DNA of 64,000 nt from Candidatus Saccharimonadota bacterium. Lineage in GTDB: Bacteria > Patescibacteriota > Saccharimonadia > Saccharimonadales > UBA10212. The DNA is taken from NCBI GenBank assembly GCA_016187125.1, contig JACPKF010000002.1, positions 1,469 to 65,468 on the forward strand, written 5' to 3'. Positions 10,911 through 62,160 of the stretch are shown piece by piece. How positions within the stretch are numbered: the first letter of the stretch is position 1; the number at the start of each line of letters is the position of its first letter. The notes below the pieces were generated by a model that made no database searches, was not told the DNA's origin, and worked only from the letters and a program-made list of their open reading frames with translations. The translations under genes were made by a program, and so were the position numbers.

Positions 10911-10991
10911 GAGGTCTATCCTTGGTGAAAAAGAGGTAAAATTTAGTAATTTTTATAAAAAAATACTTTGCTTTCACCAAGGATAGACCTC
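10911..10991. repeat. 81-nt palindromic element P1 (perfect 20-bp arms, 41-nt AT-rich loop with promoter-like hexamers)
   Basis: The arms gaggtctatccttggtgaaa and tttcaccaaggatagacctc are exact reverse complements. It is homologous to the element at 12805..12886 and lies 30 nt upstream of the jag start. Confidence 0.8.
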
Positions 10992-12804: not shown

Positions 12805-12886
12805 GAGGTCTGTCCTTGTAAAAAAGTTAAGTAAAATCTAGTGATTTTTACTAAAAAATACATTGTTTTTTACAAGGACAGACCTC
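12805..12886. repeat. 82-nt palindromic element P2 (perfect 21-bp arms, 40-nt loop), paralog of P1
   Basis: The arms gaggtctgtccttgtaaaaaa and ttttttacaaggacagacctc are exact reverse complements. It lies 25 nt upstream of the rpmH start, in the rpmH/dnaA divergent spacer. Confidence 0.8.
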
Positions 12887-26815: not shown

Positions 26816-27031
26816 CCCAGGCCTCCTTCGGAGGCAATTATCAATTTACAATTTACAATTTTCATTAAATTTACATTTAACAGTCTCCAAACATAGCTTA
26901 GGGCTTGAAGTTGAGTGCAAGAATTTTTTTTGGGCTGTGGACTGTTAGCTGTGGACTGTGGACTCATTTTTCTCCCACCCTCTTTGGTTATGCGGCTTGC
27001 CCGCCTAAAATCTCTAAGAAATTTTGATGGG

Positions 27032-29437: not shown

Positions 29438-29480
29438 AATTACATTGTATGTACATAGCCGATAGCTGTCAAGTGTTCTT

Positions 29481-29524
29481 TCAAGGACGGTTCTTGAAGA
29501 TCTTCTTTCAAGAACCGTCCTTGG
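29481..29524. repeat. hairpin made of two inverted copies of CAAGGACGGTTCTTG; a third copy lies at 28821..28837
   Basis: Read directly: tcaaggacggttcttga ... tcaagaaccgtccttgg. Together with the copy at 28821..28837 it brackets the MazEF cassette. Confidence 0.75.
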
Positions 29525-29557
29525 AAGTTTGGTAAATTTCTAATGCTTAATTATGGA

Positions 29558-47943: not shown

Positions 47944-48058
47944 TGATTCGTTCCACTCACCATCAGCTAAAAGTCCTTAGCTCAGAGTCCTTAGCCACCT
48001 CATTTAGGTTAATAGCTAACAGCTCTCAGCTTTCAGCTACAGCGACGGAAGGAGCTGC

Positions 48059-48460: not shown

Positions 48461-48541
48461 TTCACTTTCTAGCCTTCTAATGCTATTTTCTAGTTCCTAA
48501 TTTCTATTTTCTGGTACTATAGTGCTAGATGAGGTGGCGTT

Positions 48542-49408
48542 TTGGGTAGTGTTACCAATGAAACAGAATTGGGTAAAAAATTGCAGCTGGCTCGCAAACG
48601 TGCCGGCTTAACCCAACAACAGCTATGCCAAAAAGCCGGTCTGTCTTATTCAACCCTGGCCAAAATCGAACGCGGCGCTATTCGTTCCCCCTCGGTATTT
48701 ACGGTTGCCTCCATAGCCAGCGCCACTAGTACGCCTTTAGAAGACCTGCTTGATTTAGATACCCAAAGTGGCGGCTCCCCTGCCCCGCCGAACGCCAAAA
48801 AACGCTCCAAAACCGGAATCAGATTTGTTTATTTTGATATTGACGGCGTTTTGATAAGGTTTGTTATGCACGCCTTTCCTAAAATAGCTCGGGACCACGG
48901 GCTTCAACCAGACGTCGTCGAAAATGCTTTTTGGCGTCACAACGACTCGGTTTGCAGGGGGGATATTAGCCTGGAAGAGTTTAACTCAGTCGTTGGCCAA
49001 GAGCTCGGCATAAGCGGCTTCAGTTGGCTAAAATATTATTTTGAATCAGCCGAACCAACTCCCGGAGCCATCGATTTTTTGAAATGGGCAGCCCAACACT
49101 ACGACGTCGGCCTTATCAGCAACCATATGCCCGGTGAGACCGAAGAGTTATTCAAACGCCAGATTATCCCTGAGCTGGACTTTAAAACCGTGGTTGATTC
49201 TTGCAAGGTGGGAGCTGTCAAGCCAGAGGCCAAAATTTATGAAACCGCCACTGAGCTGGCAGCCGCTACGCCACCAGAAATTCTGTTGATTGACGATAAC
49301 CGGACCAATTTAACGGCTGCCGACCGTGCCGGCTGGCAAATATCCTGGTTTGACCAGTTTCAACCGGCCGAGAGTATCGAGCGGGCCAAAGCTCAGCTGG
49401 AGTTTTAA
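48542..49408 (+). CDS. fusion protein: N-terminal XRE-type HTH domain plus C-terminal HAD-superfamily hydrolase domain
   Basis: HTH region LGKKLQLARKRAGLTQQQLCQKAGLSYSTLAKIERG. HAD motifs are FDIDGV (I), LISNH (II), K-containing (III) and LIDDNRTN (IV). Confidence 0.7.
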   Translation: MGSVTNETELGKKLQLARKRAGLTQQQLCQKAGLSYSTLAKIERGAIRSPSVFTVASIASATSTPLEDLLDLDTQSGGSPAPPNAKKRSKTGIRFVYFDIDGVLIRFVMHAFPKIARDHGLQPDVVENAFWRHNDSVCRGDISLEEFNSVVGQELGISGFSWLKYYFESAEPTPGAIDFLKWAAQHYDVGLISNHMPGETEELFKRQIIPELDFKTVVDSCKVGAVKPEAKIYETATELAAATPPEILLIDDNRTNLTAADRAGWQISWFDQFQPAESIERAKAQLEF

Positions 49409-52251
49409 ATATTTTTGACAGCTGTTTGGAAAGCCGCGATTTCGTGTTTGATAGCTTCTAAAAGTTGCTGCTCTTCGACTAATTGAGTTTTTGTTTGTTT
49501 GACTAATTCCTTCGGCGCTTTTTGAGTGTAAGATTTGTTAGATAGGCGCTTTTGCAGCAGCTTTATGGCGGCTTCTCGCGCCTTTTGGGAGGTTTTTAGC
49601 CGGCCTAAGTAGGCTTGAGCGGTTTCCCGGTCAATGTCCAGCCAAGCGGCGTATTTAGTGCCGGTTAGTCGTAAGCCCTTAGCTGCTTTAGCTTCTTTTA
49701 CCTGGCTTAAGCGTCCTAAACTTTTGACTAATTCTTTATTTTCATCAATCAGCGGCGCGGCTTTATAAAACAGCGCCGGTTTAGTAACACCAACATTGGC
49801 GGCTATTTGCCTGGACTGGGTAATAATTTCTTGGAGCTCTTTGAATTGGCTAACCTTAGCTAGATCAACTTTCTGAAATTTTGGCCAAAGCTGCGAGGCC
49901 AGCAAACTCTCCTTTTCCAAGGCCAGGCCTTGGAAAAGGTTTTTATCCTGAGCAGAGTCGCCCATTCGACCTTGCTCAGGGCGGTCCTGCCCATTCGACG
50001 AGTTCAGGGCAGCCTTAGTGTTAATCGAAGGCTGAGTTTTGTCGAACGGATCGAAGGATTGCCAGATGGTTTCGGTAACAAATGGAGCAAATGGGTGGGC
50101 TATTTTTAGAGTTGATTTAAGCACGAAGGCCAGCACTTCTCTGTTGGGCGTTGTTTTGCTGACTTCTACGTACCAGTCGGCAAAATCATCCCAAACAAAA
50201 TGGTACAGCGCGTCATAAGCTTCGCTGAAACGGAAATTATCCAAGTCCTCAGAAACAGCCCTCGCCGCAATACTTAACTTGTTAAGTATCCAATGATCGG
50301 CAACCGATTTTGGCATAACACTACCCCTGTTATGACCTAAGGGTACGACCCTTAGACTTCTTCTACCTATGTTGTTCTCCTCGCCCTCTAAGGGTCGTAC
50401 CCTTAGGTCGTCTATGTAGCGGGCGATGTTCCAGAGCTTGTTAACAAAATTACGGTTGGCTACGATCTTTGACTTTCTTACTCGCTGGTCAGTTCCTGGA
50501 GAAGTGCCGGCTATCAAAGCCAAGCGCAGAGCGTCAGTGCCGTATTCATTTATAACTCCAACTGGATCAACGATGCTGTCTGGATCACTTTTGCTCATTT
50601 TCTTGCCGGTTTCTGTCCGCACTAGGCCATGCAGATAAACGGTTTTAAATGGTACTCGGCCAGTAACATAAGTAGTGGCTAGAATCATTCGGGCAACCCA
50701 GAAAAAGAGAATTTCATAAGCTGTTTCTAAGACATCAGTCGGGTGGTAAGTTTGATAGTCAATACTTTTGGCTAAAAGATCATCCAGCGATAGCGAAAAG
50801 TCCTTTGTCAGTTCTGGATCGACTAAGGTGCTCCAGGTCCAAAGCGCCGAGGAAAACCAGGTATCCAGCGTGTCCGGATCTTGCTGCCAGCCCTCTTCCT
50901 GCGGCGGCCTAACGCCTACATAAACACTGTCTTTGCTGTGGACCGCGGACTGTGGACTGTGGACTGATTCCTGTCTGTACCACACCGGAATCTGATGTCC
51001 CCACCAGATTTGACGGCTGATGCACCAGTCCCGCAGATTATCAATCCAGTGGTAGTAAATTTTCTCGAACCGTTTAGGCACAATCTTAATATCGCCATCT
51101 TCAATAACAGCTCTCATGACTTCCTTGAGGCTGCGTTTTTGACCCTTCCAATCTACCGCCGGCCGGTTGACATCAATAAACCATTGCAGTTTGATTTGTG
51201 GTTCAATAACACCTTTGCCGCGGCTATTTAAAGCGATGTTATGGGTGTATGTCTTGTCAATGCTGACCAATAAATTTTTCTGACGCAATTTTTCCACAAT
51301 TTTAGGCCGGGCTTCATCTATTTTTATAGCTTCGAATTCGCCGGCGATAGCTAAAAGCTTTCCATCAAAATCAATAATTTGTTCTTTTTCCAGACCGTGC
51401 CGCTCGGCGATTTCAAAGTCAGTGCGGTCGTGCCACGGCGTGATGGTCATCACCCCTGTTCCAAAGGCTGGGTCCACGGCCTCGTCTTTAATAATGGTGG
51501 CGGTAACTGGGCCATTGATCCATTCACATTCAAAAGTGTCGCCGGTTTTATATTGAGCGTAGCGTTTGTCACCGGGATGCATAACGACGTATTTGTCGCC
51601 AAACTTGGTTTCGGGACGGGCCGTGCTTATCTTAAAAGGGCCGTACTGTAAGGTGTAAAGTGGCGACTCCTCTTCTTTGTAAATAACTTCATCGTCAGAA
51701 ACCGTAGTTTCCAGATTGGGGTCCCAATTAACTATCCGATGGCCCCTGTAAATTAGCCCGTCTTGGTACATTTTTATAAAGACTTCGTTAACGCAACGGT
51801 TAAGTGCCTCGTCTAAGGTGTATCGCAGCCGGCTCCAATCGGCGCTGGCGCCCATAGCCCGCATTTGCTTAAGCATTGTACCTCTGTTACGATCGGCAAA
51901 CTCCTTGACCTTGGCAACAAAGGCTTCGCGGCCCAGTTCGTGTTTATTGGTCCCCTGCTCTGCCAGTTGTCGCTCAACTACAGAATTTGTAGCAATCGCT
52001 GCGTGGTCGGTTCCCGGTAACCAGAGAGCGTCGTAACCCACCTGGCGCGCATGCCTGATTAGAATGTCTTGAAGCGTTATGAATAATGCCCCGCCAAGGT
52101 GGAGGGTGGATGTTTCATTGGGGGGTGGCATGGCTATAGAGAAATGAGGTTTGGAGCTACTCGGATCAGCTATAAAGACGCCGCTCTTCTCCCAAAGGGC
52201 ATAAATATCGGCTTCATAATCACCTGCAACATAGGCTTTAGGTAATCCCAT
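49405..52251 (-). CDS. valS: valine--tRNA ligase carrying several repeat-derived in-frame insertions
   Basis: PPPNETSTLHLGGA (HIGH region with an HLGG variant), LWLPGTDHAAIAT, KMSKS (GKKMSKSD) and a C-terminal coiled coil; 948 aa. Confidence 0.9.
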   Translation of the reverse strand: MGLPKAYVAGDYEADIYALWEKSGVFIADPSSSKPHFSIAMPPPNETSTLHLGGALFITLQDILIRHARQVGYDALWLPGTDHAAIATNSVVERQLAEQGTNKHELGREAFVAKVKEFADRNRGTMLKQMRAMGASADWSRLRYTLDEALNRCVNEVFIKMYQDGLIYRGHRIVNWDPNLETTVSDDEVIYKEEESPLYTLQYGPFKISTARPETKFGDKYVVMHPGDKRYAQYKTGDTFECEWINGPVTATIIKDEAVDPAFGTGVMTITPWHDRTDFEIAERHGLEKEQIIDFDGKLLAIAGEFEAIKIDEARPKIVEKLRQKNLLVSIDKTYTHNIALNSRGKGVIEPQIKLQWFIDVNRPAVDWKGQKRSLKEVMRAVIEDGDIKIVPKRFEKIYYHWIDNLRDWCISRQIWWGHQIPVWYRQESVHSPQSAVHSKDSVYVGVRPPQEEGWQQDPDTLDTWFSSALWTWSTLVDPELTKDFSLSLDDLLAKSIDYQTYHPTDVLETAYEILFFWVARMILATTYVTGRVPFKTVYLHGLVRTETGKKMSKSDPDSIVDPVGVINEYGTDALRLALIAGTSPGTDQRVRKSKIVANRNFVNKLWNIARYIDDLRVRPLEGEENNIGRRSLRVVPLGHNRGSVMPKSVADHWILNKLSIAARAVSEDLDNFRFSEAYDALYHFVWDDFADWYVEVSKTTPNREVLAFVLKSTLKIAHPFAPFVTETIWQSFDPFDKTQPSINTKAALNSSNGQDRPEQGRMGDSAQDKNLFQGLALEKESLLASQLWPKFQKVDLAKVSQFKELQEIITQSRQIAANVGVTKPALFYKAAPLIDENKELVKSLGRLSQVKEAKAAKGLRLTGTKYAAWLDIDRETAQAYLGRLKTSQKAREAAIKLLQKRLSNKSYTQKAPKELVKQTKTQLVEEQQLLEAIKHEIAAFQTAVKNI
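50336..50407. mobile_element. 72-bp MITE-like element with perfect 20-bp terminal inverted repeats, inserted in frame in valS
   Basis: cctaagggtacgacccttag ... ctaagggtcgtacccttagg are exact reverse complements. 72 nt is 24 codons, which encode LRVRPLEGEENNIGRRSLRVVPLG in a variable part of ValRS. Confidence 0.65.
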
Positions 52252-52823
52252 CCTGTTAGAAGTCCTTCGGATTAGCTTGAATAAGGTAAACTAAATTAAA
52301 CTCGCAAATCGAGGTTTTTGATAAATTAACATCTGGAAGACTCCTAACGGGACCCATAGGGGTAAGTATACAATAAGTAGCTGACGGCAAATAGCATTAG
52401 AATACTCGTTTATAATTTCAACCGGCTACCGTAAACCATACTACTGTCAACTTGCTAGAACCCATTTCAATACCTCCTTCGGAGTTCGAGAGACTCAATT
52501 CCAGGTTAAAGATGACTGATTTCTTGCCACAAGCTGTACCCATTGGTACATCGCGAAGCAAAAATCAGTTAGATTGCCTGGAATCTGGTTCGCAGAACAA
52601 AAAACGGCCTTTCATATGAAAAGGGTTACCCTCAACTCTTCTGTTAACGCGTATCACAGAAGAACAGATCCGAATTGATTTATTTTTACCACCCGTGTTT
52701 GTTTTCAAATTAAGTATACCCAGTAGTGAGCTTTCAAGTCTACCCCAAAAGTGGTGTATAACTCGAGGAGCTTGAAAGTCTACTACCGGGTAGAACAGGT
52801 AAAAGAGTAGGGGACAAGACTAT

Positions 52824-53597
52824 CTAAGATTCAACCAGTACCAATAAAGGATGATGGTCTGATGGGCCTCTTTCGGCCACTTCCAGGCTAGTTTTATCAG
52901 TCAAATCGGGGGTGACCAGTACATGATCAAGCTCGAATGTGCCAAGAGGTATTCTACCAACGCGAAGCGGCCAAGTAGTTCGACGAGTGCTGCTTTGGAG
53001 GTCTCTCCACCCTTGTTTATTTGCCTCTTTTATTAACTTCTTGTTAACCCCAGTATTCAAATCTCCTAGAAGCATTTGTCTGCCTACTGCGGGGCCAATT
53101 TGCCTTAATATCGCCTGTCTTTCAACTGGGGGAGGGGAGTGATAGGAAGCATGGGTAGTATGAACTTTTAGTCCATCTACTACTAGTGTTCCAAGTTTGC
53201 GGGTATGGAATCTTGACTTTCTTCTTAAATGCTCAATTTTATGAAAATGAGCCCACTGTAAATGAGTGCTAACAAATCTACTACCTCCTATGAGAGTTAC
53301 AAAATCCGGGTCACGGCTGGCAAAACTCAGACCTTCAAATAAAGGTAGAGTTTTAAAGACTGTGGTGAGGCTGATATTAACTTCAAACCCCTCTTGCTCT
53401 AGTAACTCAAGAAGGGTTTCGCCATTGTAGTTTGATCTTGTTAAAGGTGCGGTTACTTCACTCAAGCTTAGTAGTACAGCTCTCGCTCCGGCCTGTCTTA
53501 ATCTTGCTTCTTGTAGCTCGATATGGCGGAACTGATCAGCTGGTTGGGCTTTATCGCAGACGTTCCAACCAATAACACCAAGAATTTCGGCAGCCAT
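52824..53597 (-). CDS. endonuclease/exonuclease/phosphatase (EEP) family protein
   Basis: LLGDLNTG and PSDHHPLLV are terminal EEP motifs. Confidence 0.7.
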   Translation of the reverse strand: MAAEILGVIGWNVCDKAQPADQFRHIELQEARLRQAGARAVLLSLSEVTAPLTRSNYNGETLLELLEQEGFEVNISLTTVFKTLPLFEGLSFASRDPDFVTLIGGSRFVSTHLQWAHFHKIEHLRRKSRFHTRKLGTLVVDGLKVHTTHASYHSPPPVERQAILRQIGPAVGRQMLLGDLNTGVNKKLIKEANKQGWRDLQSSTRRTTWPLRVGRIPLGTFELDHVLVTPDLTDKTSLEVAERGPSDHHPLLVLVES

Positions 53598-53691
53598 TTA
53601 ACAAATAAAACACTTTTTAATGCCTATCGTCAAGCCTAACATTGACAAATAAATATAAGTATTTTAATGCTAAGATGTTAAAACAAACTGG

Positions 53692-54891
53692 CTACATAGA
53701 TAGACCTGGATTAACCTCGAGGGAGTACGGATCGGCGGGTTTTTGTTTTATAGCGGCTTTAAAGTAGCCTAAACTGGCTACCATGGCGGCGTTGTCGGTG
53801 CAAAGTTTGATATCAGGGAAAAAGACCGGAGTCTTGGCGAATTTTTTGGCCACTGTTTGGCGCAAAAGCTGATTGGCGGCAACACCGCCGGCGATAACGA
53901 TAGAATTTGGCTGGAATTCTTTCTCAGCTTTCTTTAATGACTCAACCAGTGTTTCAATAGCAATATACTGAAAACTGGCGGCTATATCGGCTTTCTGGGT
54001 CTCATTTAAGGCTTCAGGCAGCTTAGTAGAAGGAAAGGTGTAATCATGACCACTTTGTTCTTGAGCTACTCTTAAAACCGCTGTTTTTAGGCCGGAGAAA
54101 CTAAAAGGATAAGCATTAGTGTGATAGGTTGAACCTATCACATTGTCGAATTTGGCTTTGGGGAACTTAAAAGCGTGAGGATTACCTTTGGTAGCAACTC
54201 TAGCGACGGATTGGCCACCGGGGTAGGGCAGGCCGAGCATTTTGGCTACTTTATCAAAAGCTTCGCCTACGGCATCATCTGTGGTTTGGCCTAAAACTTG
54301 GTAATTCATATGGCTTTTCATCAACACCAGCTGGGTGTGGCCACCGCTCACAATAAGCGCCAGAATAGGAAATTCTGGCTGCTTATTGTTCAAGCTAATA
54401 GCTGTTAGCTGAGAGCTGTTAGCTTTTTCGGTGAGGAAGGCGGCGTAAATGTGGGCCTGGACGTGATCAACAGCATACACGGGTTTGTTTTTGGCAATAG
54501 CTAGAGTCCGGGCCGTTAAAACGCCAATCAGTAAACTGCCAAGCAACCCTGGGCCCTGAGTAACGGCGATAGCATCAATCTGCGACCAAAGGTCGTCAGA
54601 TTGAGGAATTAGCAATTGGGAATTAGCAATTAGCTTTGATTTTTTACTATTTTCTAATTTCTGATTTCTATTTTCTCCGAAAGCATCCCGTAGGGCTTTG
54701 TCTATCACCGGGATGATGCTTTCTATGTGGCTGCGGGCGGCGATTTCTGGCACCACTCCTCCGAAGGCGGCGTGCAGATCTACCGAGCTGGCCACCACAT
54801 TGCTGAGCAGTTTAAGCCTCCGCCGGCCGGCGGATTCAACTACTGCCGCGGCCGTCTCGTCACAACTGGTTTCTATTCCTAAAACCTTCAT
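53692..54891 (-). CDS. tsaD: tRNA N6-adenosine threonylcarbamoyltransferase TsaD with two low-complexity insertions
   Basis: MKVLGIETSCDETAAAVV, VSGGHTQL and GLPYPGG. At 399 aa it is ~60 aa longer than usual. Confidence 0.9.
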   Translation of the reverse strand: MKVLGIETSCDETAAAVVESAGRRRLKLLSNVVASSVDLHAAFGGVVPEIAARSHIESIIPVIDKALRDAFGENRNQKLENSKKSKLIANSQLLIPQSDDLWSQIDAIAVTQGPGLLGSLLIGVLTARTLAIAKNKPVYAVDHVQAHIYAAFLTEKANSSQLTAISLNNKQPEFPILALIVSGGHTQLVLMKSHMNYQVLGQTTDDAVGEAFDKVAKMLGLPYPGGQSVARVATKGNPHAFKFPKAKFDNVIGSTYHTNAYPFSFSGLKTAVLRVAQEQSGHDYTFPSTKLPEALNETQKADIAASFQYIAIETLVESLKKAEKEFQPNSIVIAGGVAANQLLRQTVAKKFAKTPVFFPDIKLCTDNAAMVASLGYFKAAIKQKPADPYSLEVNPGLSM

Positions 54892-54995
54892 AGGTTACAG
54901 GTTACAGGTTAGAGGGGATAGTGTACAGACCAGACAAATATTGCATACTCAATACCTAATACCGCATACTTTATACTGAAGATGAGTTTTAGGCG

Positions 54996-56396
54996 TTGGT
55001 TAACGGGATGAATCCGAAAAAGCTGGCTCGCAAGGTCTTGCCGCGGCGCGGCGTGCGCCTGGCCGAGGAGACCTATCGGAAGGGCAGGGTATATAGCCTC
55101 CAAGCTCTCAACCTATTTCCGGCCAGAGGCCTGCGGGTAATAGGCGTAACCGGAACAAATGGCAAGACTACAACCTGTAATTTTATAAACGAAATGCTGA
55201 AAAACGCCGGCTATAAAACGGCTCTGTACAGCACAGCCATCATAGAAATTGATAGCCAAAAGCGACTTAATGAATCTCACCGGACGGTGCCGTTGACCGC
55301 TGAGCTGATAGGGTTTTTCAAAGATGCCGCTAAAGCCAAGGTGGATTTTGTGGTTATGGAAGTCACCAGTATGGCTCTTGACCAGCATAAAATGATCGGT
55401 ATTCCGGTGGAAGTGGCGGTTATGACAAATCTTAGTCAAGAACACCTTGATTACCACGGGACTATGGAAAATTACGCGGCGGCCAAAGCCCGGTTATTTA
55501 ACAAATATATGCATCCCAAATATGCAGTGCTAAACCGTGACGAGCAGTGGTATGAGTATTTTGCCGGGCAAGCCTCCGGCGAAGTTATTTCTTATGGCAA
55601 AGACCAGGCCAGCTCCGTCAGGATTGTTAATATAAGCCCTACAACTAACGGCAGCGATTTCAGTCTGGAAATTGATGGAAAAAATCTGGATGCTCATAGC
55701 CAATTAGTTGGCGAATTTAATGTTTATAACGCCGCGGCGGCAGCTGCCGCGGGCTTGGCGATTGGCCTAGATAACCAACAAATCACCAGCGGTATTGCAA
55801 CTCTAAAAGGGGTGCCTGGGCGCATGGAAAAAATTGAAGCCGGGCAAGACTTTGAAGTGATTATAGACTACGCTGTTACACCCGACGCTCTAGCCAAAGC
55901 CCTGCAAGCTACAGCTCAAACCACAAAGGGCCCTCCATCGCCACCTCCTTCGCTGAAGCTACGAAGATCAAGAAAGCTTCCTCCTTCGCAAGTGCTTCGG
56001 AGGACAAGAAGGCTAGGGAGGGCAGGCAGGGTAATAGTTGTTTTTGGCGCGACGGGAGACCGTGATAAGTCTAAGCGGCCGCTTATGGGTGAAGTGGCTG
56101 CCAAATATGCTGATCGGATTTTTTTAACTGATGACGAAACCTATAGCGAAGATCCGGCCGCTATCCGCCGGGCCGTCTATGAGGGCATTTTGGCAGCTGG
56201 TGGCGCCACAAAAACCACCGAAATTGGCGATCGCCGCCGGGCGATTAAAGCCGCTTTTAATGACGCCAAACCAGGCGACACCGTGCTGCTAACTGGTATA
56301 GGCCATCAAACGACTCGCAATATGGGCGGGCACGAGGAGCCCTGGAATGAGCACGAAGTTGCCAAAGAGCTATTGAGCCAATTAACTAAAACCTAA
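54996..56396 (+). CDS. murE: UDP-N-acetylmuramoyl-L-alanyl-D-glutamate ligase (MurE) with a repeat-derived insertion
   Basis: GVTGTNGKTTT, DYAVTPDAL and VFGATGDRDKSKRP. The amino-acid substrate (DAP or Lys) cannot be told by eye. Confidence 0.85.
   Translation: MVNGMNPKKLARKVLPRRGVRLAEETYRKGRVYSLQALNLFPARGLRVIGVTGTNGKTTTCNFINEMLKNAGYKTALYSTAIIEIDSQKRLNESHRTVPLTAELIGFFKDAAKAKVDFVVMEVTSMALDQHKMIGIPVEVAVMTNLSQEHLDYHGTMENYAAAKARLFNKYMHPKYAVLNRDEQWYEYFAGQASGEVISYGKDQASSVRIVNISPTTNGSDFSLEIDGKNLDAHSQLVGEFNVYNAAAAAAAGLAIGLDNQQITSGIATLKGVPGRMEKIEAGQDFEVIIDYAVTPDALAKALQATAQTTKGPPSPPPSLKLRRSRKLPPSQVLRRTRRLGRAGRVIVVFGATGDRDKSKRPLMGEVAAKYADRIFLTDDETYSEDPAAIRRAVYEGILAAGGATKTTEIGDRRRAIKAAFNDAKPGDTVLLTGIGHQTTRNMGGHEEPWNEHEVAKELLSQLTKT
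55939..56029. repeat. dispersed repeat copy inside the murE coding sequence (paralog of 42581..42695)
   Basis: Shared blocks are ctccttcgctgaagctacgaagatcaag[a/g]aagcttcctccttcgcaa[g/a]tgcttcggag and caagaaggct...ggcaggcag. In murE it is translated as a basic/Pro-rich segment (PPSLKLRRSRKLPPSQVLRRTRRLGRAG). Confidence 0.75.
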
Positions 56397-58047: not shown

Positions 58048-58329
58048 GTGAAAGGAGTGATTATGACAGTTCAATTGCAGCCCTTGGCTGATTGGGTGGT
58101 TGCCGAGCAAGAAGAAGCCGTTACTAAAACCGCTAGCGGCCTATATTTGCCCGACAAAGCGGCTGAAAAGCCCAAGATCGCCAAAGTTTTGAAGGTCGGT
58201 AATAAAGTCAAAGACGTTAAAGCCGGCGATAGAATTGTTTACAAAAGTTACAGCACGACTGAACTGAAAATCAACGGCACTGAATATGTGCTGGTTAAAG
58301 AGGAAGACGTGCTAGCTACTGTTAAGTAG
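58048..58329 (+). CDS. groES: co-chaperonin GroES
   Basis: LQPLADWVVAEQEE...TASGLYLPD...GDRIVY. The likely start is the ATG at 58063, behind AAAGGAG. Confidence 0.9.
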   Translation: MKGVIMTVQLQPLADWVVAEQEEAVTKTASGLYLPDKAAEKPKIAKVLKVGNKVKDVKAGDRIVYKSYSTTELKINGTEYVLVKEEDVLATVK

Positions 58330-58459
58330 CCCATTAACCATGATCCATTCACCATTTACCTTGCATTATCAATCAACCATTAACGGTGAACGGAACACGG
58401 AACATGCACGGAAAACGGTGAACAGTGAACGGTAAAAGTTAACAACGAAGGAGTTATAG

Positions 58460-60100
58460 ATGGCCAAGAAAGTTTTTTATGATGATGACGCCCGCCGCCG
58501 AGTGCTAGGCGGAGCCGAGATTTTATATAACGCTGTAAGAACAACCATGGGGCCCAAGGGTCGCAATGTGGTTATCAGCAAGAGTTATGGCAATCCCACT
58601 GTTACGCACGACGGCGTGGCTGTGGCCAAGGGCGTAGAATTGGACGATGTTGATGATGAGACATTAGGCTATAAAGTTGGCGCCGAGCTAATCAAACAAG
58701 CCGCCAGCAAGATGAATGATGTAGCCGGCGACGGTACGACAACCGTAACGATCTTGACTTATCACATTTTGAACGAGGCCAATAAACTGATCGCCGCCGG
58801 CCACAACCCGATGTTGCTTAGAAAAGGCCTGGAAGCCGCGGCCCACGATGTACTGGCCAAGCTCGGCGGCCTGAGTGAAAATATTGCTAGCAAACCAAAA
58901 CGGGTAGCCGAGGTAGCCACAATTTCGGCCGGTGATCCAGAAATTGGCGAACTGATAGCCGGCGTTATGGCTAGTGTCGGCAAAGACGGCGTGGTAACGG
59001 TAGAAGAAGGCCAGGGTCTAGCACTGGAAAGCGAAGTAGTCGAAGGCTTTACCATGGACCGCGGTTACGTCAGCCCCTATATGGTGACTGATACTGCCCG
59101 CATGGAAGCGATTTACGATAAACCGGCCATTCTGATCACCGACCAAAAAATCGCTGCCATTGCCGAATTTTTGCCGATGCTGGAAAAACTGGCTACTGCT
59201 GGCAAAAAAGATTTAGTTTTGATCGCCGACGAAGTTGAGGGCGAGGCTCTTGGCACGCTGATCCTTAACCGTCTAAAGGGAGTGTTTAATACTGTGGCCA
59301 TCAAGGCTCCGGCTTTTGGTGATCGCCGCAAGGAAATTCTGGAAGATATTGCCATTTTGACCGGTGGGGAAGTCATTAGCGAAGAAACCGGCATGACGTT
59401 TGAAAACGCTGATGTTTCGGTGGTTGGCTCGGCCCGCAAAGTAATTGCCACCAAGGATGAAACCACTATTATTGAAGGCGGCGGTTCCGCGGCAGCAATA
59501 AGAGCGCGCATCGAACAAATTAATAAGCAGATCGAAGCTGCGACTTCCGAGTATGATAAAGAAAACCTAGAAAAAAGGCGGGCGGCGCTGTCTGGCAAAG
59601 TGGCCGTTATTAAAGTCGGCGGCGCTACCGAGACCGAAATTGAAGAAAAGAAATTCCGGGTTGATGATGCCGTAGCCTCTGTTAAATCGGCGCTTGATGA
59701 GGGAGTGGTACCAGGCGGCGGCCTGACTTTAGTTGACCTTTCCAAACTTGTAAAAACCGGAGGCAGTGATTCGGTCTCAGCCGGCGCCGGAATTTTAAAA
59801 AATGCTTTGCTGGAACCGTTCAAGCAATTAATGGCCAATGCTGGCCTTAACGCCGAAGCCAAATTAGAAAAGTTACTGGAAGGCGGCAAGGGCCTGGGCT
59901 TTGATGTCAATAATCCCGACCAGCTGGTGAACCTTAAAGAGGCCGGCATAGTAGACCCAACCCGAGTAGTTAAAGAAGCGATCCAAAACGCTGTTTCTAT
60001 CGCCGGCACGGCTATGACCATGGGCGCCTTAGTAAACGACGTACCCGAAAAATCTGCCCCAATGCCCGGCGGAGCGCCGGACATGAGCGGCATGATGTAA
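58460..60100 (+). CDS. groEL: chaperonin GroEL
   Basis: AKKVFYDDDARRRVLGG...GPKGRNVV...AGDGTTT, with a C-terminal GGAPDMSGMM tail. Confidence 0.95.
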   Translation: MAKKVFYDDDARRRVLGGAEILYNAVRTTMGPKGRNVVISKSYGNPTVTHDGVAVAKGVELDDVDDETLGYKVGAELIKQAASKMNDVAGDGTTTVTILTYHILNEANKLIAAGHNPMLLRKGLEAAAHDVLAKLGGLSENIASKPKRVAEVATISAGDPEIGELIAGVMASVGKDGVVTVEEGQGLALESEVVEGFTMDRGYVSPYMVTDTARMEAIYDKPAILITDQKIAAIAEFLPMLEKLATAGKKDLVLIADEVEGEALGTLILNRLKGVFNTVAIKAPAFGDRRKEILEDIAILTGGEVISEETGMTFENADVSVVGSARKVIATKDETTIIEGGGSAAAIRARIEQINKQIEAATSEYDKENLEKRRAALSGKVAVIKVGGATETEIEEKKFRVDDAVASVKSALDEGVVPGGGLTLVDLSKLVKTGGSDSVSAGAGILKNALLEPFKQLMANAGLNAEAKLEKLLEGGKGLGFDVNNPDQLVNLKEAGIVDPTRVVKEAIQNAVSIAGTAMTMGALVNDVPEKSAPMPGGAPDMSGMM

Positions 60101-61116: not shown

Positions 61117-62160
61117 ATGCTAGATGATCTCAAATACATACATCAAAAGGACTCGCAGGACGCTTTGGGAATTGCCCAGCGACAATGGCAACAACTCGAA
61201 CACAAATTTGAGGTGACAGGTGACAGCTTACAGGTGACAGGTGGATTCTCTAGCGTCGTGTATGCGGGTATGGGTGGGTCCGCCTTAGCAGCCCTTTTAA
61301 GTAAAAGTTGGCCGGGTTATAGTGTGCCGCTTGAAGTTTGCCGCCAGTATCATGTCCCGGCTTACGTTTCGCTGGGGACGCTATTTATAGCTGCCAGTTA
61401 TTCTGGCAATACCGAAGAAACATTGTCGGCTCTGGCGGAAGCTCAAGGCAAAGGCGCGACGATTGTGGTAATCGCCAGTGGTGGCCAGCTGCAAGAAATC
61501 GCTAAGGCTAAAAGCTATCCATTTATGATGATTCCTAAAGTTGAGCAGCCGCGCTATGCTGTTTTGTATAACCTCAAGGCGCTGGTTACGATTTTGGAGG
61601 CGGCTAGTTTGCTTGAGAAAGAGCAGGCCAGTGCGGCTATTACCCAGGCGGCCAATTTTTTGAAAGACAAAGTCACCGCCTGGATCGCCACTGTCCCAAC
61701 TAAGGACAACCCCGCCAAAAAATTGGCCGAGGATTTAGCAGGCAAGTCGGTAGTAATTTACGGCGGTCCGCTGCTGGCGCCGGTAGCTTATAAATGGAAG
61801 ATAAATTTTAACGAGAATGCCAAAAACGTGGCCTGGTGGAATGAATTTCCGGAATTTAACCATAACGAAATGATTGGCTGGAGCAGCCACCCGGTAGAAA
61901 AACCTTACGGAATTGTGGAGCTGCGCAGCAATTTAGAACATAAACGAGTTCAGCGCCGGTTTGAAGTAAGCGCCAAGCTACTTTCTGGCCGCCGCCCCGC
62001 ACCGTATATAGTTCAAGTTGAAGGCAACACTCTGCTGGAGCAACTGCTGTGGGCTTTGGCTTACGGAGATTTTGTCAGTATTTATTTAGGCATCCTGAAT
62101 GGACTTAATCCGGCGCCAGTTGAACTGGTCGAAAAATTCAAAACCGAACTTAACAAATAA
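61117..62160 (+). CDS. bifunctional phosphoglucose/phosphomannose isomerase (SIS-domain PGI/PMI)
   Basis: SYSGNTEETL, and NEFPEFNHNEMIGW is characteristic of the PGI/PMI family. Confidence 0.8.
   Translation: MLDDLKYIHQKDSQDALGIAQRQWQQLEHKFEVTGDSLQVTGGFSSVVYAGMGGSALAALLSKSWPGYSVPLEVCRQYHVPAYVSLGTLFIAASYSGNTEETLSALAEAQGKGATIVVIASGGQLQEIAKAKSYPFMMIPKVEQPRYAVLYNLKALVTILEAASLLEKEQASAAITQAANFLKDKVTAWIATVPTKDNPAKKLAEDLAGKSVVIYGGPLLAPVAYKWKINFNENAKNVAWWNEFPEFNHNEMIGWSSHPVEKPYGIVELRSNLEHKRVQRRFEVSAKLLSGRRPAPYIVQVEGNTLLEQLLWALAYGDFVSIYLGILNGLNPAPVELVEKFKTELNK

Follow-up and report, generated by a model that had tools for sequence, protein, structure and literature searches.

In-frame heptamer arrays and palindromes in tsaD of a Saccharibacteria genome, and their counterparts in intergenic spacers

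The tsaD gene and its extra segments

The window (that is, the whole 64-kb stretch of DNA analysed) encodes on its minus strand a TsaD protein that is 100% identical to an NCBI TsaD from a Candidatus Saccharibacteria genome. The host enzyme, the product of an essential gene for tRNA modification, is ordinary, with a canonical TsaD/Kae1 fold (ASKHA two-lobe): it matches the Pfam profile PF00814 (TsaD) at E = 1.8e-82, insert 1 (listed below) dividing the match into two stretches; the T. maritima and E. coli TsaD chains match it at E = 1e-60 to 1e-69; and its AF2 model (mean pLDDT 91.8) finds YgjD/TsaD structures as its best Foldseek matches in the PDB (3ZET, 4YDU and 4WQ5; E ~1e-34, target TM-score 0.90-0.92). 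Residues H143, H147 and D366 are invariant in 120 homologues and align with the corresponding residues of T. maritima TsaD; going by E. coli TsaD, we take His143, His147 and Asp366 to be the metal ligands.

What sets the protein apart is its length. Solved TsaD chains span 327-354 aa and the shortest Saccharibacteria orthologues have 343 aa, so that the excess of the window protein over the latter is 56 aa, close to the ~60 aa given in an earlier note on this DNA. This excess is fully accounted for by four indels, all of which are encoded by repeat or palindromic DNA. The two larger ones are the in-frame insertions that the note had described, with the same peptides and with boundaries within a few bases of those given here; its repeat words were also borne out, although the 7-base period, the hairpin layout and the two further palindromic indels had escaped it. 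The features of the gene are as follows.

53692..54891, minus strand: tsaD coding sequence, 399 aa (ORF list, Pfam, alignments)
54592..54678, minus strand: insert 1, residues 72-100, GENRNQKLENSKKSKLIANSQLLIPQSDD, 87 nt (alignments, heptamer layout)
54607..54634, plus-strand unit: array (AATTAGC) x4, 3' half of insert 1 (TRF, lag-7 scan)
54643..54676, plus-strand unit: array (TTTTCTA) x4.9, 5' half of insert 1 (TRF)
54603..54677, no strand: imperfect inverted repeat with arms 54603-54633 and 54647-54677 (inverted-repeat search)
54385..54426, minus strand: insert 2, residues 156-169, KANSSQLTAISLNN, 42 nt (alignments, TRF)
54392..54425, no strand: insert-2 hairpin, a self-complementary array (fold of 54335-54445)
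54350..54389, no strand: strong 17-bp hairpin in which NNKQPE codons pair with core ILALIV codons
54118..54144, minus strand: insert 3, residues 250-258, NVIGSTYHT (sequence, alignment)
54819..54834, no strand: perfect 16-nt palindrome tccgccggccggcgga (read from sequence, alignments)

Insert 1 consists of two neighbouring heptamer arrays that are imperfect reverse complements of one another, the coding strand reading GAAAATA/GAAATTA in the 54643..54676 array and CTAATTG/CTAATTC in the 54607..54634 array. The inverted arms, 31 nt each, are 74% complementary and spaced 13 nt apart, and the predicted fold has -22.5 kcal/mol (z = -1.8) on the plus strand and -11.2 kcal/mol (z = +0.6) on the mRNA strand; the hairpin thus forms mainly on the strand opposite the mRNA, and in the form found in the window it is weak. 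Reading the sequence showed no terminal repeats that would stand apart from the arrays. In the protein, fold topology would place insert 1 at the end of the first interface helix, off the catalytic and TsaE-binding face (the helices of the TsaD-TsaB bundle are described in PMC4330362). Residues 73-82 are modelled as a continuation of this helix and residues 83-100 have pLDDT 51-58, the values for residues 71-100 in ten-residue blocks being 72, 58 and 51 (AF2).

Insert 2 is made up of a heptamer array of GCTAACA type whose core, AGCT, is palindromic; TRF reports TAGCTGT x3.7 at 54399-54424. The insert is modelled with pLDDT ~97 (AF2), and more distant Saccharibacteria share its C-terminal part, which has the pattern xxYxLPxx. 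The region 54335-54445 folds with z = -5.4 on the plus strand and z = -7.05 on the mRNA strand, 0 of 200 shuffles being as good, and the adjoining stem at 54350..54389 is kept through paired changes (GAA/CTG in the window versus AAA/TTG in the related loci L083 and L001). The two smaller indels are palindromic: insert 3 (pLDDT ~60) is encoded by the palindrome 54120..54142, with the perfect core gtgataggttgaacctatcac and a self-match of 22/23, and the palindrome at 54819..54834 encodes the four-residue indel SAGRRR (residues 20-25), present in some relatives only.

Heptamer arrays in spacers and other genes

The same kind of DNA is widespread between the genes of the window. A lag-match scan found 14 period-7 segments, where 0.05 were expected from shuffles, and no segments at lags 4-6 or 8-13. 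Ten of the 14 are intergenic, in the 14% of the window that lies between genes, which makes them about 15 times denser there than within genes; the lag-7 match rate is 0.298 in intergenic DNA versus 0.247 in genes. TRF places period-7 arrays at 54399-54424, 54607-54634 and 54643-54676 and at least 12 others in the window. The units are diverse (40 distinct canonical units among 45 arrays), AT-rich and in no case G-rich. Arrays and in-frame elements referred to below lie at the following positions.

54892..54915, no strand: array (AGGTTAC) x3.4 adjoining the tsaD start codon, in the tsaD-murE spacer (TRF, lag-7)
48483..48512, no strand: spacer array with the HIT and HTH-HAD genes on either side, paralogous to the TTTTCTA arm
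48007..48041, no strand: spacer array of AGCTAAC type upstream of the HIT gene, holding the insert-2 18-mer
50934..50976, minus strand: in-frame heptamer array (GACTGTG) in valS, encoding ESVHSPQSAVHS
50334..50409, minus strand: in-frame palindromic element in valS with 23-nt perfect inverted arms

The earlier note had proposed that inserts and spacers share a repeat vocabulary, and all five spacers that it cited do contain heptamer arrays. Its suggested k-mer comparison agrees: the log-odds of intergenic versus genic composition are +0.32 to +0.37 for the inserts and -0.13 to -0.17 for the remaining tsaD, and the insert composition is spacer-like to a degree reached by 0 of 2000 genic control segments. 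The link exceeds shared words, as an exact 18-mer of insert 2 (54407..54424) lies on the opposite strand in the spacer at 48014..48031, and bases 54647..54676 of insert 1 are identical to the spacer array 48483..48512 at 27 of 30 positions (BLAST E = 1.8e-4), a paralogy that we compared four ways (two loci in two genomes). A full-length paralogue of insert 1 was found neither in the 64-kb window nor in 12 related loci, where only one arm has a match.

Other genes are affected as well. The GACTGTG unit of the valS array also occurs in the spacer 26935..26964, with a 16/16 match at 26949-26964, and the valS palindromic element belongs to a family (21-23-nt inverted arms around a 24-30-nt centre) whose members lie in valS in four genomes and in tsaD in L083 alone. 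Between the window and L081 this palindrome shows coordinated changes in both arms, and the stem is kept. Its motif GGGTACGACCC is represented in 64 kb only by the two valS copies, on which ground an uptake-sequence-like abundance was rejected. In-frame arrays or palindromes are likewise carried by murE and a PGI-like ORF.

The idea that arrays in general form hairpins was also rejected, given that the association between arrays and hairpins is only moderate (median minimum z -1.67 versus -1.13 at random positions, p = 3e-4). Scans for known signals gave two sub-threshold CRISPR-repeat matches and nothing else in Rfam (53500-55100) and no sigma-70-like site (54200-55100); the only terminator-like matches in 54200-55100 fall on a core-codon hairpin at 54359-54379.

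The inserts among relatives

Scans of genome and metagenome contig collections returned relatives of at most 65% identity, and the comparisons that follow cover 64 kb of this genome and short loci of its relatives, whose insert homologues come from independent NCBI, ENA and Logan assemblies. Array density is 1.9-8.8 per 10 kb in the window, L081, L083, L001, L085-L088 and L169-L173; no period-7 arrays were found in the ten other Saccharibacteria loci scanned, and eight loci from other lineages gave a single period-7 segment. Among the loci scanned, arrays are abundant only in the closest Saccharibacteria relatives. The inserts follow suit: ortholog alignment, which the earlier note had called for, shows that their sequences are absent from TsaD of other phyla and of the ten other Saccharibacteria loci, and that unrelated sequences occupy the same sites within the clade.

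Wherever they are filled in this clade, both TsaD loop sites carry heptamer arrays, with units that differ by lineage. For insert 1 these are, for example, GAAATTA/CTAATTG in the window, GCTAAAA/CTTTCAG in L086 and L171, and GTAGACA/GTCTACC in L173; for insert 2 they are GCTAACA, AGCAAAA, TTCAAAC, AGATCAA or CCGTCTA. Insert 1 lies at the same codon in all insert-bearing lineages and is near-constant in length in 10 of 11 of them (87-96 nt, 26-31 aa), the insert of L085 being shorter by exactly 21 nt (that is, three units). Insert 1 is lacking in L001 and many orthologues. An empty insertion site is available only in distant relatives. The reading frame remains open across the inserts in 12 of 12 lineages, and because every version stays in frame, the inserts are presumably translated. 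That the inserts date far back and occupy common sites across the clade, and that the DNA of insert 1 is conserved, had also gone unnoticed earlier.

The distribution of insert types is incongruent with the rest of tsaD: outside the insert, L083 groups with L171, yet its insert 1 is shared with the window. The arms of insert 1 match each other in a lineage-specific manner, own-arm pairs folding at a mean of -29.0 kcal/mol versus -18.7 (sd 5.4) for cross-lineage chimeras on the mRNA-complementary strand. A common structure did not emerge, as RNAalifold on 11 insert-1 sequences gave no consensus and the window hairpin, mapped to the alignment, pairs in 58.9% of cells, equal to the value when partners are slid by 3 columns. 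As fixed-register pairing is thus no better than the slid control, we reject a positionally conserved RNA in insert 1.

What is conserved lies at the level of DNA. Substitutions in insert 1 fall on the three codon positions in the ratio 16:15:19, versus 271:172:653 in the core (p = 0.0045), and within one insert type divergence is ~7% per site versus ~54% at core third positions (about eightfold lower). At positions encoding the same residue, codons are identical in 88-96% of cases in insert 1 versus 46-60% elsewhere (p down to 5e-6). This pattern of slow divergence recurs in three insert-type groups. Since substitutions ignore codon position and divergence is low, protein-level selection does not explain the conservation of insert 1, and the amino-acid sequence is not the conserved thing. 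Two further explanations were considered and rejected. Ordinary recombination tracts do not fit, because codon identity in the 20-codon flanks is mostly average (not raised in four of six pairs, p = 0.7-1.0; marginally raised in two L081 pairs, p = 0.02-0.05) and because in 5-6 syntenic genes the only 84-nt windows of at least 90% identity are tsaD insert 1 and the valS palindromic insert; an exchange tract limited to the element itself may still fit. Clade-wide synonymous constraint around insert 1 does not fit either, the flanks standing at 0.45-0.54 versus a mean of 0.46. From the even spread over codon positions and the slow divergence it follows that either the DNA or RNA of insert 1 is maintained, or the segment has a more recent shared ancestry through element-centred exchange.

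The HIT/HTH-HAD spacer, in which the TTTTCTA array sits immediately upstream of an HTH-domain gene, is 90% identical overall between the window and L083, whereas the flanking genes are 55-78% identical. Certain other array-bearing spacers have just 79-80% identity between relatives; the groES-groEL spacer, at 80% identity between the window and L081, keeps an equal unit count.

Origin of the inserts and comparison with known systems

Taking these observations together, we consider it probable that the extra segments of TsaD are in-frame, translated copies of the clade-specific repeat DNA that also fills the spacers, namely tandem arrays of 7-base units, often in inverted pairs that would form imperfect hairpins, and short palindromes. 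The arrays may arise and turn over through slipped-strand events in the 7-base register. As the unit is 7, the three reading frames alternate along an array and the frame is kept by three-unit steps only, so that within genes only such steps (21 nt, 7 aa) would survive. Arrays would persist solely at sites that the protein tolerates, which for insert 1 is the end of the first interface helix, where the model gives it a short helical extension and then a loop of low confidence. The complementary arms might be kept by arm-to-arm templating or by selection. Slippage alone leaves the joint change of both arms and the stable array copy number between relatives unexplained. Nor does in-place slippage predict incongruent insert types, and recombination must therefore be added to the model.

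A bolder extension, which we offer only tentatively, is that hairpin-forming repeat modules are dual-use: loops of TsaD, ValRS and MurE on the one hand, and on the other DNA or RNA elements on which purifying selection acts more strongly than on the enzyme cores, swapped as cassettes between lineages at fixed sites. If so, a nucleic-acid-level function would be embedded in housekeeping genes.

The strongest competitor to repeat-derived loops, a serious possibility even if we give it clearly less weight, holds that the inserts serve first of all as functional nucleic-acid elements (hairpins in DNA or RNA, or protein-binding arrays) under purifying selection that is blind to codon position, with translation a tolerated by-product. 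The low and even divergence of insert 1 argues for this, the more so as it is repeated in the three type groups, the valS palindromic insert and the HIT-HAD spacer, and so do the stem-keeping changes of the valS palindrome between the window and L081, the arm complementarity particular to each lineage and the z-scores of the insert-2 region (-5.4 and -7.05). Because the TTTTCTA array lies directly upstream of the HTH-domain gene, it could be an operator-like site. However, positional covariation was not found, the window-type insert-1 hairpin is weak, Rfam matches and promoter-like sites are missing from the regions scanned, and some array-bearing spacers are at just 79-80% identity; furthermore, insert sequences are wholly different between type groups, and therefore no common motif is conserved.

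That miniature mobile elements like the Rickettsia palindromic elements (RPEs) or MITEs transposed into tsaD in frame, with no growth in place by slippage, seems unlikely to us. Palindromic repeats inserted in frame are documented for Rickettsia (PMC10969869), spacers hold paralogues of both inserts, insert types are incongruent with the gene backbone, and the palindrome that four genomes have in valS, and L083 alone in tsaD, resembles a lineage-specific gain by a second gene. Yet the window and the 12 related loci hold no full-length insert-1 paralogue (an absence that is provisional because only 64 kb of the genome was searched), terminal inverted repeats distinct from the arrays were not seen, and the strict 7-base period with many units is unlike MITE families. 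The shared codon and near-equal length (except in L085) fit one ancient gain followed by turnover better.

A reading in which the inserts serve the protein, as lineage-specific loops of adaptive value (say, to bind a partner in a reduced t6A machinery), and the DNA periodicity is incidental, is improbable. Position and length of insert 1 (the latter in 10 of 11 lineages) are indeed conserved across the clade, a step of three heptamer units makes a 7-residue period, the interface helix is continued in the model by residues 73-82, and insert 2 combines pLDDT ~97 with an xxYxLPxx pattern that recurs in more distant Saccharibacteria. Against this, insert-1 substitutions take no account of codon position, the entire peptide differs from lineage to lineage, residues 83-100 are modelled at pLDDT 51-58, matching DNA is present in non-coding spacers, and there are many orthologues, that of L001 among them, which function with no insert 1. 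An assembly or gene-calling artefact, which repetitive sequence in metagenome-assembled genomes might suggest, can safely be set aside in view of homologous inserts at the same codon, all in frame, in the independent NCBI, ENA and Logan assemblies.

The preferred reading, repeat DNA translated in frame, has its closest parallel in bacterial heptanucleotide repeats (PMC4692102), which comprise the cyanobacterial STRR arrays and the GGGAATC and GGGGA(T/C)T repeats of Xanthomonas and Nostoc, and for which slippage tied to the DNA polymerase footprint has been hypothesized. Common to both are 7-base tandem units in a lineage-specific excess not seen for other unit lengths, a mainly intergenic location near gene ends, inverted hairpin pairs in some cases, and sequences that vary at the same locus between relatives. 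The window arrays differ in their Saccharibacteria host, in having many unrelated AT-rich units instead of one or a few G-rich consensus units (none matches the published STRR or GGGAATC consensus) and no G-quadruplex potential, in lying in frame in universal housekeeping genes at conserved loop sites, and in that one array insert is the most conserved DNA of its gene. Our literature search found no paper linking Saccharibacteria with heptanucleotide repeats.

RPEs (PMC10969869) are likewise short palindromic DNA found both between genes and in frame in unrelated housekeeping genes, where they are translated as an extra peptide tolerated by the fold. They form ~150-bp families with a conserved consensus and a conserved encoded peptide, whereas the window elements are 42-87 nt long, have an internal 7-base period and lack a family-wide consensus; one site carries different sequences in different lineages, and full-length paralogues were not found in the 64 kb and 12 related loci. 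REP/BIME-type repeats resemble the arrays as dispersed short repeats, often in inverted hairpin pairs near gene ends. DNA uptake sequences, too, occur inside genes in permissive protein regions. Unlike either, the window repeats have no single conserved motif. Borg repeats within genes reportedly have unit lengths divisible by three. The unit here is 7, and the hosts are bacterial chromosomes, not archaeal extrachromosomal elements; fast turnover, occurrence both between and within genes, and low-complexity, probably disordered peptides are shared with Borg tandem repeats (PMC9879509).

Proteins of the candidate phyla radiation often exceed the length of their orthologues, and here the whole excess of a universal enzyme was traced to one kind of repeat DNA, a concrete mutational source for lineage-specific protein loops. 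As the 7-base unit is not a multiple of three, the system offers a clean natural experiment on the survival of non-triplet repeats in genes. We had not expected the inserted repeats to evolve more slowly than any other DNA of their genes while the peptide sequence is unconstrained; if selection is responsible, essential genes of these reduced genomes host a nucleic-acid signal, and if element-centred exchange is responsible, hairpin repeats are recombination hot spots in uncultured, probably naturally competent bacteria. At a practical level, inserts of this kind will mislead orthology filters based on length, as well as alignment trimming, in this phylum.

TsaD and its extra segments

The tsaD open reading frame (53692..54891, minus strand) encodes a 399-residue protein, and an NCBI TsaD of a Candidatus Saccharibacteria assembly matches it at 100% identity. 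The protein's Pfam TsaD match (E = 1.8e-82), the lack of variation at His143, His147 and Asp366 among 120 homologues (residues that we take, by analogy with E. coli TsaD, to be the metal ligands) and the superposition of its AlphaFold model (mean pLDDT 91.8) on Salmonella and E. coli YgjD (target TM-score 0.90-0.92) together indicate that the host gene is an ordinary TsaD. Solved TsaD chains comprise 327-354 residues and the shortest Saccharibacteria orthologues 343; the 56 extra residues all fall in four indels, as located by orthologue alignment and by alignment to T. maritima TsaD. The earlier note had described two of these (inserts 1 and 2) as in-frame insertions, with coordinates and peptides that proved correct within a few bases.

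Extra segments of TsaD, from the alignment
54819..54834: SAGRRR indel, residues 20-25, net gain of 4; encoded by a perfect 16-nt GC palindrome, tccgccggccggcgga
54592..54678: insert 1, residues 72-100 (29 residues)
54385..54426: insert 2, residues 156-169 (14 residues)
54118..54144: insert 3, residues 250-258 (9 residues); encoded by a 21-23-nt palindrome

Insert 1 comes after a long helix (residues 48-71) that the AF2 model continues over residues 73-82 before passing into coil, and its pLDDT by ten-residue block is 72, 58 and 51. In E. coli, the corresponding YgjD helices form the YeaZ-binding bundle, with YjeE on top of the bundle (PMC4330362). Judged by beta-alpha-beta topology, the C-terminal end of the insert-1 helix would lie at the far end of the bundle from the nucleotide site. 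Model pLDDT is ~97 for insert 2 and ~60 for insert 3. The SAGRRR indel occurs in some relatives and not in others, in a pattern discordant with the rest of tsaD.

Heptamer arrays in the window and its relatives

Tandem Repeats Finder (TRF) places three arrays (that is, head-to-tail repeats of a 7-base unit) within inserts 1 and 2 and a fourth beside the gene, and detects, elsewhere in the window, more than 12 arrays of period 7 or 14.

Arrays in and beside tsaD (TRF)
54607-54634: AATTAGC x4, in insert 1
54643-54676: TTTTCTA x4.9, in insert 1
54399-54424: TAGCTGT x3.7, in insert 2
54892-54915: AGGTTAC x3.4, adjoining the tsaD start codon

A lag-match scan of the window (at least 16 matches per 21 positions) gave 14 lag-7 segments, 9 lag-14 segments and none at lags 4-6 and 8-13, with 0.05 in shuffled sequence; the genes themselves have the usual period of 3. 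Ten of the 14 lag-7 segments lie in intergenic DNA, which makes up 14% of the window (a ~15-fold enrichment), and the lag-7 match rate is 0.298 in intergenic compared with 0.247 in genic DNA. The four genic segments are in tsaD (two), valS (one) and a PGI-like ORF (one). Arrays are associated only moderately with predicted structure (median minimum z -1.67 versus -1.13 at random positions, p = 3e-4).

The earlier note had proposed that the tsaD insertions are built from the word repeats of the spacers, and all five spacers that it cited do contain arrays. On intergenic-versus-genic log-odds, the scores are +0.32 (5-mers) and +0.37 (6-mers) for the inserts and -0.13 and -0.17 for the rest of tsaD; the insert score was reached by none of 2,000 genic control segments. 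True paralogues exist as well: the TTTTCTA arm of insert 1 (an arm being one half of an inverted pair) is identical to spacer 48483-48512 at 27 of 30 positions, an exact 18-mer of the insert-2 core recurs on the other strand in spacer 48014-48031, and the valS array matches spacer 26949-26964 at 16/16 bases. The k-mer scores and these paralogues support the proposal, and we did not find the insert peptides conserved in distant TsaD orthologues.

The window and the loci of every close Saccharibacteria relative fetched (L081, L083, L001, L085-L088 and L169-L173; TsaD 58-75% identical) carry 1.9-8.8 period-7 arrays per 10 kb. Ten tsaD loci of more distant Saccharibacteria yielded none, and eight loci scanned from other lineages contained only one period-7 segment. 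Where the loop sites of inserts 1 and 2 are filled, they carry heptamer arrays in every such relative, but the units differ; those of insert 2 are GCTAACA, AGCAAAA, TTCAAAC, AGATCAA, CCGTCTA or CTACCAA.

Units of insert 1, first array then second
Window, L081, L083, L085: GAAATTA-type then CTAATTG-type
L086, L171: GCTAAAA then CTTTCAG
L087, L170: GCACCTA/GCTCTCA then CTAAGTG
L173: GTAGACA then GTCTACC
L172: AGAGGTT then a CT-rich arm

Insert 1 is 87-96 nt long in 10 of the 11 lineages bearing it, is shorter by exactly 21 nt (three units) in L085 and is wholly absent from L001 tsaD. The reading frame is open in every version despite the many unrelated sequences, in which stops or frameshifts would otherwise be expected, so the inserts are presumably translated. 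In L083 (2637..2693), the annotated 19-residue N-terminal extension of protein P0030 is a read-through of two upstream arrays (GTATGAA and CCCTAxA), its start codon probably having been mis-called.

Array growth is, in our view, the most likely explanation of the inserts, and the account has four elements. The clade would be strongly prone to make and retain 7-base tandem arrays; a published hypothesis explains the heptamer excess of other bacteria by replication slippage linked to the polymerase footprint (PMC4692102). Arrays would then build up where tolerated (that is, in spacers and permissive protein loops), within genes only three-unit steps would survive (for example, the L085 deletion), and complementary arms would be kept by templating or selection. 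Two known kinds come nearest: the heptamer repeats of bacteria (STRR in cyanobacteria, and those of Xanthomonas and Nostoc), whose structural definition fits the present arrays although consensus units and hosts differ, and Rickettsia palindromic elements, which are likewise in-frame, palindromic and tolerated. The literature searched contained no paper connecting Saccharibacteria and heptanucleotide repeats. The origin of the inserts would be ordinary repeat biology; out of the ordinary is that their sites are fixed, that their arms co-vary in a lineage-specific way and that their DNA is exceptionally conserved.

Paired arms and DNA conservation

The two arrays of insert 1 are, in each lineage, imperfect reverse complements of one another (arms 54603-54633 and 54647-54677 in the window, 74% complementarity). 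When the 5' half of one lineage's insert was joined to the 3' half of another's, cross-group chimeras folded at a mean of -18.7 kcal/mol (sd 5.4) on the mRNA-complementary strand compared with -29.0 for own arms, and at -13.9 compared with -19.6 on the mRNA strand, which argues that the complementarity is sequence-specific and that both arms have changed together. The complementary strand is always the better folder, because its G-U pairs become C-A mismatches in the mRNA. Insert 1 is without positionally conserved structure: RNAalifold predicted none, and the window hairpin projected on the alignment paired 58.9% of cells, the same as a 3-column slide. For the window-type hairpin, z-scores of -1.8 on the complementary strand and +0.6 on the mRNA strand show weak folding.

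The AGCT-core array of insert 2 is self-complementary and adjoins a 17-bp stem (54350..54389) in which codons of the conserved TsaD core pair, those for NNKQPE with those for ILALIV. The region of array and stem together folds at z = -5.4 on the + strand and -7.05 on the mRNA strand, and of all 90-nt windows in the 64 kb it is among the most structured. In L083 and L001 a paired change preserves the stem, GAA/CTG to AAA/TTG, which is Glu to Lys on one side and synonymous for Leu on the other.

No part of tsaD is more conserved at the DNA level than insert 1. Among the four lineages with the window-type insert, its nucleotide identity is 0.86-0.97 versus 0.68-0.73 elsewhere in the gene, and where residues are the same, 88-96% of codons are identical versus 46-60% elsewhere (p = 7e-3 to 5e-6 against distant gene parts). 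Two other type groups are comparable (L086 and L171, 18/20 identical codons in insert 1 and 88/183 elsewhere; L087 and L170, 15/19 and 112/201). Substitutions in insert 1 are spread evenly over codon positions (16:15:19 versus 271:172:653 in the core, p = 0.0045), so the peptide is not what is conserved. Between window and L083, the insert diverges by ~7% per site versus ~54% at core third positions. In 5-6 syntenic genes, identity to L083 or L081 reaches 90% over an 84-nt window only in tsaD insert 1 and in an in-frame palindromic insert of valS. Spacer 48461..48541, between the HIT and HTH-HAD genes and containing the paralogue of an insert-1 arm, is ~90% identical to L083, and its flanking genes are 55-78% identical. 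The TTTTCTA array in this spacer lies just upstream of the HTH-domain gene and could be an operator.

Outside the insert, L083 is nearest to L171 (0.75 identity), yet its insert 1 is of the window type; L171 has its insert type in common with L086, with a backbone identity of only 0.63; and groupings by insert-1 and insert-2 type disagree. This incongruence clearly points to shuffling of tsaD by recombination. Of six pairs, four show no elevation of codon identity in the 20-codon flanks and the two that involve L081 only a marginal one (p = 0.02-0.05), and ordinary recombination tracts reaching into the flanks are unsupported in most pairs. The conservation of insert 1 may reflect either purifying selection acting on the element as DNA or RNA, or element-centred exchange or gene conversion, by which the element would have younger ancestry than its flanks. 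A primarily nucleic-acid function, which overlaps in part with array growth, is a possible but less favoured explanation.

Related elements and remaining alternatives

In-frame repeat and palindromic inserts are not peculiar to tsaD.

Elements in other genes and in spacers
49405..52251: valS
50934..50976: valS, in-frame GACTGTG array, residues 426-440, encoding ESVHSPQSAVHS; unit matches spacer 26935..26964
50334..50409: valS, in-frame palindromic insert, residues 615-640, common to the window, L081, L088 and L083
~49890..50030: valS, 45-residue insert, residues ~745-790, with several strong hairpins, found in this genome only
54996..56396: murE-like ORF, with a 33-residue insert PPSPPPSLKLRRSRKLPPSQVLRRTRRLGRAGR at 55932..56030, an imperfect palindrome (CCCTCC pairs GGGAGG)
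61117..62160: PGI-like ORF, with an in-frame AGGTGAC array at 61206..61245 encoding EVTGDSLQVTGG near the N-terminus
58325..58462: groES-groEL spacer, two heptamer arrays
10911..10991, 12805..12886, 29478..29527, 52717..52792: long intergenic hairpins

At the site of the valS array, L081 carries other units (AAATCAA/AAGATCA). In the valS palindromic element, a 24-30-nt centre lies between inverted arms of 21-23 nt, CTA[A/C]GGGTACGACCC[T/G]TAG; the element's codons are identical at 15/15 and 19/24 positions versus 43-47% in the core. Between window and L081 it is the most conserved stretch of valS, and coordinated changes in both arms keep the stem. The hairpins of the 45-residue insert reach ~-60 to -66 kcal/mol over 150 nt and include a near-perfect 12-bp palindromic stem, CCTTTTCCAAGG, with arms around a short GC-rich loop. 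The murE insert is not in relatives, whose MurE has 430-434 residues.

The valS palindromic element also occurs in tsaD, in L083 only (L083 3262..3327), which suggests that this lineage gained it there. It is unlikely that the tsaD inserts arose by transposition of a miniature element; unlike Rickettsia palindromic elements, the arrays showed no full-length multi-copy consensus in the window and 12 related loci. Still less probable are adaptive protein loops, against which the even spread of substitutions over the codon positions of insert 1 speaks. An assembly artefact can be dismissed, since the inserts are present in independent NCBI, ENA and Logan assemblies.

Hairpins 10911..10991 and 12805..12886 have the arm GAGGTCTRTCCTTG in common, which suggests a further dispersed, non-heptameric hairpin family. 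The groES-groEL spacer folds well only opposite to transcription (z = -3.9 versus -0.8), and in L081 it has the same unit count at 80% identity.
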